Positions 12,408 through 13,421 of a stretch of DNA of 31,567 nucleotides are shown here, one piece after another. Every line of letters starts with the position of its first letter. Positions within the stretch are counted from its first letter, which is position 1. The translations under genes were made by a program, and so were the position numbers. Source of the stretch: a virus; the UHGV virus genome UHGV-1390503; one strand, given 5' to 3'. The notes beneath the pieces were generated by a model. It was not told the origin of the DNA and did not search any database. It worked only from the letters and a program-made list of their open reading frames with translations.

Positions 12408-12599
12408 ATGAAACACGAATACGACCGCAAACCAGCACGTGACATCGTACCGGGTGACATGATTTTCAACGTTAAGACACGTCGTCCTGTTGCCGTTGAT
12501 ACGGTGTTCGTCGAGTCGAATGGTAAACTGGTTATAGAAGATGTAACCGGTAACGTCACGGCGTTCGGGCGGAAGGAATTGGTACTGGTGGCAAAATGA
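12408..12599 (+). CDS. Hypothetical protein
   Basis: 63 aa; RBS AAGGAATTGAGAAATG. Confidence 0.5.
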   Translation: MKHEYDRKPARDIVPGDMIFNVKTRRPVAVDTVFVESNGKLVIEDVTGNVTAFGRKELVLVAK

Positions 12600-12844
12600 A
12601 CTATTACAATGAATGGGATAAAGGCGCTGCTGCGTGGCTGCGTGAATTAATAAAACAGGGTCAAATACCTTTTGGGGTCGTAGATGAAAGAAGCATTACC
12701 GAAGTTAAGCCAGAAGACCTTGACGGGTTCACCCAGTGTCATTTTTTTTGCTGGCATCGGCGGCTGGCCTCTCGCGCTCAGACTTGCGGGAGTTTCGGAA
12801 GATACGCCTCTCTGGACGGGAAGCCCGCCTTGCCAACCGTTTAG
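12596..12844 (+). CDS. ORF whose first 48 codons resemble a C5-methyltransferase N-terminal segment; becomes out of frame with the methyltransferase body at a T8 tract
   Basis: MNYYNEWDKGAAAWLRELI... resembles the NEWDK-type segment of M.HhaI as recalled; after the T8 run (12742-12749) the product looks like alternate-frame sequence. Confidence 0.35.
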   Translation: MNYYNEWDKGAAAWLRELIKQGQIPFGVVDERSITEVKPEDLDGFTQCHFFCWHRRLASRAQTCGSFGRYASLDGKPALPTV

Positions 12845-13421
12845 TGCAGCAGGAAAACAACTCGGACAGTTCGACCCGAGACACCTCGCGACAGTCTTCC
12901 TCAACCTCATCAGCGAGTGCCGCCCTCCAGTCATCTTTGGGGAACAGGTTGCGCCAGCAATTGCAAAATCGTGGATGTGCGATTTACAAGCTCATCTGGA
13001 AGGAGAAGACTACGCCGTCGGGTTTGCCGTACTCCCAGCTTGTAGCATCGGCGCACCGCATAAAAGAGAGCGACTCTTCTTTGGTGCGTACCAACTGGCC
13101 GACACCGACAGCGAACGATTACAAAGGGAGCGGAGAGACAGTGATTCGCAAGGACGGGAAGGACAGAACATTCGACAGGCTGGACTACTCAACGGAGCAG
13201 GGGCTGAAAATAGCACAACCAATCCGCACCACGGCTTCTGGTCAGATGCTGACTGGCTCGGATGCCGGGATGGAAAATTCAGGCCAGTTGAACCCGGCAC
13301 ATTCCCGCTGGCTAATGGGATACCTGCCAGAGTGGGACGATTGCGCGGTTACGGCAATGCCATCGTCCCGCAAGTAGCCGCTGAATTTATAAAGGCGTTC
13401 ATGGGGGCGGTAAATGAGTAA
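12684..13421 (+). CDS. DNA (cytosine-5)-methyltransferase, apparently frame-disrupted
   Basis: In this frame: FAGIGGW (motif I), SPPCQPFSAAGK (IV), VIFGEQV (VI), GAPHKRERLFF (VIII), GNAIVPQVA (X). The expected WPTP segment and motif IX ([10 protein letters not shown]) are in the +1 frame (ORF 12736..13377). Confidence 0.6.
   Translation: MKEALPKLSQKTLTGSPSVIFFAGIGGWPLALRLAGVSEDTPLWTGSPPCQPFSAAGKQLGQFDPRHLATVFLNLISECRPPVIFGEQVAPAIAKSWMCDLQAHLEGEDYAVGFAVLPACSIGAPHKRERLFFGAYQLADTDSERLQRERRDSDSQGREGQNIRQAGLLNGAGAENSTTNPHHGFWSDADWLGCRDGKFRPVEPGTFPLANGIPARVGRLRGYGNAIVPQVAAEFIKAFMGAVNE
12742..12749 (+). repeat. Homopolymeric T8 tract at the junction of two methyltransferase-related reading frames
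   Basis: ATTTTTTTTG read directly; T7 would fuse QCHFF (upstream frame) to AGIGGW (motif I). Confidence 0.9.

Follow-up and report, generated by a model that had tools for sequence, protein, structure and literature searches.

The C5-cytosine methyltransferase gene of the viral genome UHGV-1390503 does not have three breaks. It belongs to a known but seldom recognised type of methyltransferase gene that encodes two products in nested frames, and it carries one homopolymer frameshift allele. The genome is the IMG/VR contig IMGVR_UViG_3300045988_021324, and the whole of its 31,567 nucleotides (nt) is referred to here as the window. A first-pass annotation of the window had distributed the conserved methyltransferase motifs over three reading frames, with a T8 tract at the first junction and further frame changes near 13083 and 13345. 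By analogy with characterised enzymes we give a probability of roughly 70% to the reading that the locus is a nested gene of a K1G-like phage whose two products act as the alpha and beta chains of a heterodimeric C5-methyltransferase. Frame 0 would encode the catalytic, alpha-like chain, comprising a motif-II-like segment, motifs I, IV, VI and VIII, a free linker and a C-terminal block with motif X, and the +1 frame, entirely inside the alpha gene, a second, beta-like chain. What is shown is that the two frames are open and that purifying selection acts on each of them. The first-pass annotation had not anticipated such a result, which speaks for dual coding.

Both frames are open and under selection

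For comparison 80 related IMG/VR loci (46-94% amino-acid identity, GC content 0.50-0.71) and three GenBank loci were fetched. Selection was analysed as entropy per codon position on the back-translated frame-0 alignment of 68 non-redundant loci, the codons of which are numbered here as alpha codons. Every one of these loci, from IMG/VR and GenBank alike, has an open +1 frame that extends almost to the gene's end; a combined count gives 81/81 loci in which this frame is free of stops and nested in the methyltransferase ORF. It opens no later than codon 38, except in L014, where it opens at codon 88. The +2 frame is closed in every locus; it contains about 3 stops between codons 40 and 118 and about 8 between codons 118 and 258, roughly 11 in all, as expected. 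For the +1 frame, synonymous shuffles of frame 0 predict 1.4 and 2.4 stops in the same two stretches, and the probability that a locus has none is about 0.2 and about 0.13, respectively. No +1 stop was observed in 67 of 68 loci for the first stretch and in 60 of 68 for the second, so the openness of the +1 frame is far beyond chance.

The pattern of substitutions changes along the gene. In codons 1-125, 152-163 and 245-270 the third position is the most variable one, as in ordinary single-frame coding. In codons 127-151, 168-176, 208-216 and 231-243 the third position has low and the first position high entropy, as is typical of a sequence that codes in the +1 frame, the first position of an alpha codon being the third position of the +1 frame. 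Four-fold degenerate sites at conserved residues reach 1.6-2.0 bits at codons 9-99, 153-160 and 251-267, versus 0-0.7 bits at codons 104, 110, 118, 127, 134, 140, 142, 149, 151, 154, 163, 168, 221 and 230-250. Several of these sites are invariant or nearly so (Val231 is GTT in 58/58 sequences, Pro233 CCC in 54/54, Ala239 GCT in 52/52 and Gly241 GGG in 62/63). Single codons illustrate the same behaviour. Codon 240 is [ACGT]AT and is read as N, H, D or Y in frame 0, while the Leu-Met of the +1 peptide WLMG stays unchanged; Leu134 is always encoded by xTG, so that the +1 frame keeps a Trp there; and at codons 169-170, at a W-P-T-P unit of the +1 frame, the first position varies and the third does not.

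Frame 0 is in turn kept open where its amino acids are free to change. Its linker, which joins motif VIII to the C-terminal block (codons 164-214; length across the loci 32-133 codons), has no stop in 68 of 68 loci, compared with 3.1 stops in shuffles synonymous for the +1 frame, which give a median probability of 0.02 per locus for a stop-free linker. As the frame-0 linker is kept free of stops and the +1 frame is kept open, both frames are evidently read through the whole overlap.

These results bear on the junctions that had been proposed. Frame 0 continues without interruption through 13083 and 13345, and it is colinear with every homologue, of which there are hundreds, yet the alternate-frame matches are reproduced in the relatives as well. 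The +1 peptides had thus rightly been taken for meaningful methyltransferase-related sequence; in all relatives they belong to a separate nested open reading frame (ORF) with a selection of its own. There is next to no room for a decaying pseudogene or for three indel errors in the contig. One real frame break does exist at the T tract, but it is the only indel relative to K1G, the continuity of frame 0 in all relatives contradicts the second and third junctions, and no other gene of the window is frameshifted. Decay, a switch or indel errors, the choices offered at first, fail at these two junctions; recent inactivation, a homopolymer switch or sequencing error may apply to the T tract alone.

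The alpha-like chain in frame 0

All features of the two coding frames described below lie on the plus strand. As it stands, the frame-0 ORF comprises 245 codons (12684-13421) and contains motif I FAGIGGW (12747-12767), motif IV PPCQPFS (12825-12845), motif VI FGEQV (12936-12950), motif VIII GAPHKRERLFF (13050-13082) and a motif-X-like GNAIVP (from 13353), all in the frame in which they were first placed. The catalytic motifs FAGIGG, PPCQ, GEQV and APHKRERLFF follow each other in canonical order. PF00145 matches the ORF over motifs IV-VIII with E=1e-17 to 6e-17 (62.5-64.5 bits, curated cut-off 22), and a profile of the family aligns motifs I and IV-VIII with residues 2-33 and 76-168 of M.HhaI (E=1.3e-11). 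The protein obtained after correction of the tract to T7 is matched over its full length by phrog_363 (5e-87).

The N-terminal 49 codons of the alpha chain, MNYYNEWDKGAAAWLRELIKQG...QCH (12596-12741), are severed from the rest by the extra T. The N-terminal segment of the chain, YYNEWDKGAAAW, precedes motif I; YYNEWDKGAAA aligns weakly with residues 37-47 of M.HhaI, YSNEWDKYAQE, in the region of motif II. This alignment suggests that an element contacting S-adenosylmethionine sits ahead of motif I. The possibility that the N-terminal YYNEIDP..AA.WL represents a second copy of motif X was ruled out, as the profile aligns the segment, albeit weakly, with the motif II region of M.HhaI.

Behind motif VIII follows the linker (13086-13235), which shows no amino-acid conservation, is variable in length and is always free of stops, and then the conserved block FWSDADWLGCRDGKFRPVEPG (13236-13298). 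In the family the C-terminal block reads FW.DADWL.CRDGK.RPVEPG..PLA.G.P.RVGRLRGYGNAIVP and ends in the motif-X-like GNAIVP. Profile searches with PF00145 and against the PDB do not reach the segment after motif VIII in either frame. Compared with monomeric C5-methyltransferases such as M.HhaI (PF00145), motifs I and IV-VIII of frame 0 are alike and can be aligned. The locus is unlike them in having a motif-II-like segment before motif I and no recognition domain or motif IX in frame.

The nested chain in the +1 frame

The +1 ORF comprises 213 codons, from GTG at 12736 to TAG at 13375-13377, and lies wholly inside the methyltransferase ORF (12596-13421) on the same strand. In relatives it has 220-320 codons and starts with an ATG near alpha codon 26-40, which matches the ATG at 12684 of the window. 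Its product begins with a leader of about 75 residues that shows no constraint of its own and is predicted to be disordered by AlphaFold2. The leader is followed by a helix, SASAALQSSLGNRLRQQLQN, and a beta-hairpin, YKLIWKEKTTPSGLPYSQLVASAHR (together 12910-13059, overlapping alpha motifs VI-VIII), for which the AlphaFold2 model reaches a predicted local distance difference test (pLDDT) score of 81-90 and in which Y, W, TP and L.AS..R are conserved to at least 90%. Next come a single W-P-T-P-x-A-x-D-x-K-G unit, WPTPTANDYKG (13096-13128), and a C-terminal block starting with TASG. The most conserved part (13231-13347, including the peptide at 13285-13347) has the motif-IX-like pattern L-x-P-x5-L-M-G-Y-x-P-x-W. 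LIWK, TNWPTPTANDYK and WLMGY are among the peptides of this frame.

Relatives carry 1 to 7 W-x-T-P units ('LAGWPTPTTRDHKD...'). The varying number of these units accounts for the length classes of 274, 309, 314 and 353 amino acids (aa) seen in frame 0 and for an insertion of about 105 nt in phage Golestan, which has two units, compared with one in K1G.

The first-pass annotation had recognised the WPTP segment and a second, motif-IX-like peptide in this frame. Both are present; the assignment to motif IX is made by pattern only, since the +1 product has no family or profile match. Motif X in frame 0 (GNAIVP) and motif IX in the +1 frame (LNP..WLMGY.P.W) are alike in this respect, both being recognised at the level of the pattern and neither being reached by profile searches. 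The matches of the +1 product in PHROGs (phrog_1008 and phrog_31772) are families of the same alternate-frame ORFs and are not independent evidence. Against the PDB, a chimeric peptide of Bacillus phage yong1 that combines the +1 motif IX with the frame-0 motif X gave only spurious HEAT-repeat matches, and so did the corresponding peptide from frame 0 alone.

Expression of the +1 frame

A +1-frame ATG between alpha codons 20 and 45 is found in 64 of the 68 loci, against 0.73 expected, and there is no such enrichment between codons 46 and 103. The +1 frame is already selected at codons 104-151, ahead of motif VIII. Together with the openness upstream, these two observations favour independent initiation over frameshifting. 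Most probably, translation of the beta-like chain would start independently at an ATG in the vicinity of alpha codon 30. A TTG at alpha codon 118, preceded by a GGNGA Shine-Dalgarno sequence, was also considered as +1 start; it is not supported, as the third position of Gly115 is saturated.

The alternative is a single polypeptide made by two programmed frameshifts, in which frame 0 is read up to motif VIII, the +1 frame through the WPTP and motif-IX-like segments and, after a -1 shift, frame 0 again for motif X. Such a product would restore the canonical order of motif VIII, target recognition domain, motif IX and motif X, and the bases GGGTTTCCC of Bacillus phage yong1 give G-F-P in either frame. 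There is also one database protein in which frame-0 motifs VI-VIII are naturally fused in frame to +1-type sequence. This protein of 124 aa (P0393, from a Logan assembly and of the Bacillus-phage type) reads GENV...GAPHQRYRTFVVA and then directly ASQNHKPIRPL...INPQLLEWMMGFPIGWTEV; it represents a frameshift mutant or else hints at fused forms. Nothing else turned up in the search for in-frame methyltransferases with the WPTP and LNP..WLMG segments, the best 120 and the best 150 hits of two large searches all being alternate-frame ORFs.

However, no slippery sequence is conserved at either supposed junction (codons 157-163 and around codon 250) beyond what the two codings impose, and the third positions of codons 157-163 are saturated. 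The +1 frame is selected upstream of motif VIII and is free of stops from codon 38 or earlier in 67 of 68 loci. Frame 0 stays open over the whole gene and does not close after the supposed junction, although its linker would never be translated by this mechanism, and over codons 215-250 both frames are constrained together. We therefore regard programmed frameshifting as very unlikely.

Comparison with known two-chain methyltransferases

The closest known case is M.EcoHK31I, a heterodimeric C5-methyltransferase specific for YGGCCR whose beta chain, in the published passages on this enzyme, is encoded wholly within the alpha gene in another frame, the alpha chain carrying motifs I-VIII and X as well as the predicted recognition domain and the beta chain motif IX (PMC2836561; PMC3404938, citing Lee et al. 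1995). Methylation was not conferred by an alpha gene from which the beta starts had been silently removed; beta can do without its first 42 residues in vitro, and the Met codons 17 and 26 of beta can be used as starts (PMC2836561; PMC3404938). The dispensable leader of this beta chain resembles the unconstrained +1 leader described here, its multiple starts the enrichment of ATG codons, and its motif IX, at the level of the pattern, the C-terminus of the +1 product. A difference is that M.EcoHK31I belongs to a bacterial restriction-modification system and the present gene is an orphan methyltransferase of a phage. By analogy with the M.EcoHK31I beta chain, the beta-like chain would associate with alpha and contribute the functions of the small domain and of motif IX. 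For the +1 product we infer separate initiation, heterodimer formation and a role in DNA recognition. The recognition function itself may, tentatively, be placed on the beta-like W-x-T-P chain, because alpha shows no constraint between motifs VIII and X and the conserved W-x-T-P units, which vary in copy number, are on the beta-like chain.

The Rz/Rz1 spanin genes of phage lambda and its relatives are another example of a gene embedded wholly in a second one, in the +1 frame, with products that work together. They differ in their unrelated function, and the overlap found here is longer (about 640-1000 nt) and lies inside a catalytic core. In the K1G record an overlapping Rz-like spanin pair is annotated as well; it overlaps partly and is not nested. 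M.AquI is a two-polypeptide C5-methyltransferase that is split in the variable region (PMC3404938). Its alpha chain has motifs I-VIII and its beta chain motifs IX-X, and its two ORFs overlap only at their ends and are not nested. In the present family motif X stays on alpha.

A number of observations weigh against the heterodimer reading. Sequence and profile searches of Pfam, NCBIfam and the PDB with the +1 product gave no match, and its AlphaFold2 model, built from 77 sequences, is weak (pLDDT 62.6, predicted template modelling score 0.32), only the helix-hairpin being confident; a Foldseek search of the PDB with this model returned nothing with E<0.39. The AlphaFold2 model of the alpha chain is unusable (pLDDT 38.7), the alignment of close relatives being too shallow. 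The +1 start codon has no fixed position, and in all these phages the +1 ORF is known from sequence alone. The likeness to M.EcoHK31I is one of architecture, taken from its published description, and there the recognition domain is assigned to alpha, whereas here alpha is unconstrained between motifs VIII and X and the conserved W-x-T-P units are on the beta-like chain. Finally, two metagenome loci (L125 and L126) have frame arrangements which the nested model does not explain.

Some of these points would also suit a +1 ORF that encodes a real protein unrelated to methylation, i.e. an overprinted gene with a role for example in anti-defence or regulation. The +1 product has no detectable homology to methyltransferase domains, its W-x-T-P array varies from 1 to 7 copies, and Pseudomonas phage LPPA33 has an apparently intact +1 ORF together with an N-terminally truncated methyltransferase frame. 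We consider this explanation unlikely. The +1 ORF is strictly tied to the methyltransferase family across phages of Proteobacteria, Actinobacteria and Firmicutes, no free-standing copy was found among the hits inspected, and its C-terminal pattern fits motif IX, which is otherwise missing from alpha. An analogous nested beta chain is moreover needed for the activity of M.EcoHK31I (PMC2836561).

The T8 tract

The T8 run at 12742-12749, to which no strand is assigned, is present as first reported and is the sole homopolymer of at least 7 bases in the window. Removal of one T restores the reading H-F-F-A and joins the upstream segment MNYYNEWDK..., which starts at 12596, to motif I, as had been predicted for a T7 tract; the result is an ORF of 825 nt and 274 codons, the length of the K1G methyltransferase gene. 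Accordingly, tblastn with the K1G methyltransferase splits at the tract into residues 1-52 in one frame and 31-274 in another. The claim that all three frames stay open does not hold behind the tract, where only two do, since the frame starting at 12596 stops at 12844.

In the window the alpha start at 12596 thus leads to this stop. In the sequence as it stands, the ATG at 12684, which is the +1 start in relatives, reads into the alpha frame and gives a product of 245 aa that is identical to P0121 of the gene caller and has no motif-II-like segment. The window +1 frame is left without an ATG, with GTG 12736 and several TTG codons remaining. Users of the contig should note that the deposited gene call of 245 aa is a chimera of a beta start and an alpha body. 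A single slippage event would make the gene pair fully intact again.

Close relatives have CAT TTT TTC GC at this position (T6C), so that the window differs from them by one inserted T and a C>T change. Among the assembled sequences about 50 other distinct members of the family have a pyrimidine tract of 7 nt, versus two 8-nt alleles from a single sample. These two, the only 8-nt tracts in IMG/VR, are the window contig and contig _013548, both from metagenome 3300045988; four other contigs of the same metagenome have a tract of normal length. Contig _013548 has T7C, i.e. an extra T as in the window. It is 94.6% identical to the window around the tract and hence no closer than other relatives, and it represents a different phage with a methyltransferase subtype that has two W-x-T-P units, both frames being otherwise intact.

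The T8 is identical in the JGI contig and in scaffold_810 of ENA ERZ28576386 (sample SAMEA4545318; 34,138 nt), which have 3,738 nt including the T8 in common. With K1G proteins as tblastn queries, about 25 kb of other coding sequence of the window show no frameshift; the methyltransferase gene alone has one. The presence of the T8 in two assembly records of different length, together with the absence of frameshifts from the other genes, argues that the tract is not an assembler artefact.

On balance, T8 is somewhat more probably a real, recent frameshift allele than anything else. A sequencing or consensus error, with a true tract of 7 nt and an intact gene, is the less probable choice but has to be taken seriously, as the tract is the longest homopolymer of the window and the only two 8-nt tracts in IMG/VR share one metagenome. 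It is opposed by the second assembly record, by the long coding sequence without frameshift, by the second extra-T contig being a different phage with a different methyltransferase subtype, and by the normal tracts in the four other contigs of this metagenome.

Only a minor part of the case for a real allele falls to a functional switch, which we regard as improbable. Slippage in such a contingency locus would toggle the methyltransferase off and on, which could help against hosts whose Type IV enzymes cut DNA containing 5-methylcytosine, and switching would become more frequent through the C>T change by which T7C is lengthened to T8. It would agree with this idea that two different phages of one sample carry +1 alleles at the same tract with their frames otherwise intact and that a single slip gives back a perfect H-F-F-A reading. 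The homopolymer is, however, not kept in the family, most members of which have mixtures of TTC and TTT, and 8-nt alleles are found nowhere else in IMG/VR. In phase-variable DNA methyltransferases (mod/hsdS tracts) the length of a homopolymer within the coding sequence likewise sets the integrity of the frame, but here the tract is not conserved in the family and the variation comes from one sample only. A role of the tract as a conserved slippery site for frameshifting was ruled out, again on account of the TTC/TTT mixtures.

Distribution and unusual relatives

A search of the protein database with the +1 product yielded 890 clusters at 90% identity; the 120 clusters listed all have 83-237 aa, most of them 165-237 aa, and no Pfam domain. 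A profile of the +1 product retrieved 18,877 representatives at 50% identity, 7,362 of them at E<=1e-30. By tblastn 249 phage records were matched. Four of these were inspected (a Vequintavirinae myovirus, Rhodobacter phage RcIroh, BcepC6B and 'Dunaliella viridis virus SI2'), and in 4/4 the match lies +1 to an annotated methyltransferase coding sequence (CDS). Methyltransferases with the motifs in classical order have the +1 product in their +1 frame as well, namely those of mycobacteriophage Spikelee and a lineage 59% identical to it, of Bacillus phage yong1 and of Paracoccus phage KLEP18-1. A search among plasmids for a member with a link to restriction-modification gave one uninformative hit from Leptospira.

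The gene callers used for metagenomes very often report the +1 ORF instead of, or besides, the methyltransferase frame. This explains the thousands of clusters of 'hypothetical proteins' without Pfam domain, some of which may be the sole call on short contigs. No description of a nested ORF in phage C5-methyltransferases was found in the literature searched, nor do the identifiers of the sample occur there.

More speculatively, nested coding could be the rule for a very large clade of phage and prophage C5-methyltransferases from Proteobacteria, Actinobacteria and Firmicutes, with thousands of clusters. The +1 chain with its 1-7 W-x-T-P units would then be the real DNA-recognition module, the annotated variable region a read-through linker, and the T tract in the lineage of the window possibly a reversible switch that rewires which start serves which frame. 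If this is true, most database entries for these enzymes describe half an enzyme. Should the +1 chain be needed for activity, thousands of phage annotations as 'DNA cytosine methyltransferase' miss a required subunit, and codon optimisation of the annotated ORF would abolish the activity with the annotated protein visibly unchanged. The two ORFs would in that case be among the longest and most widely conserved overlapping gene pairs on one strand in bacterial viruses and a natural test bed for the co-evolution of two proteins on one stretch of DNA, to which the lineage with a duplication described below adds value. The number of W-x-T-P units varies between close relatives and may mark the specificity of methylation and hence the host restriction systems that are evaded.

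In the Klebsiella-phage-type IMG/VR loci L010-L012 the overlapped C-terminal block is duplicated (about 2330-2480 in L010). In the first copy the +1 motif LRPGHSRWLMGFPAEWD is preserved and the frame-0 reading is degenerate; in the second it is the frame-0 motif FPLGRDIPARVARLRGYGNAIVP that is preserved and the +1 reading that is degenerate. The overlap appears to have been partly resolved by the duplication, and this pattern is the one expected if each frame encodes something that is needed.

In three loci the +1 ORF lacks a stop ahead of the following gene and continues into it in frame (L009, 1571-3052; L010, 1568-2914; L054, 1589-3916). In L009 the downstream gene encodes a Dam-like N6-adenine methyltransferase (DLWQTP...NPPY), in L010 it is endonuclease-VII-like, and in L054 it is a long gene. 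We cannot tell whether these arrangements are due to chance or encode real fusion proteins.

In the aforementioned L125 and L126, IMG/VR metagenome contigs with classical motif order, frame 0 stops shortly after motif VIII. The W-x-T-P repeats continue in another frame, partly in frame with the motif-X block ...VADGIARGLD..LRGLGNMVVP, and the peptide LN..FVAWLMGLPEGWT is again found +1 to this block.

Two of the phage records contain reduced forms. In Dunaliella viridis virus SI2 (NC_023841.1; CDS 1404-1808 of locus L086) the 'cytosine methylase' of 135 aa is a deletion derivative, in which the N-terminal 29 residues are joined straight to the linker and the C-terminal block, without motifs I-VIII. 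Both frames are open, and the +1 frame reads WPTPTLADHRRG...RLNPALSRWLMGLPPVWD. In Pseudomonas phage LPPA33 (CDS 581-1183 of locus L104) the +1-type ORF is annotated as 'hypothetical protein', and the methyltransferase frame has a stop just before motif I and a degenerate motif VIII.

Genomic context

The window is a partial genome of a Kagunavirus-like siphovirus (Guernseyvirinae). Its methyltransferase region is about 93% identical to those of the Escherichia phages K1G and UTI-CM001. The locus is flanked on its 5' side by an ORF of 63 codons (12408-12599) and on its 3' side by a gene for a SNF2-type helicase (13414-14838), and the same gene order is found in K1G. The K1G record annotates both frames of the methyltransferase gene, ORF31 as methylase and ORF30 as 'Mte8-like'; in the literature search 'Mte8' occurred as an annotation label only.

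The end of the genome that encodes tail fibre and host-range functions differs from that of K1G. At 16693-22142 on the minus strand of the window, the K1G tape-measure protein is matched only over its residues 425-756 and the K1G tailspike only over its first 141 residues.

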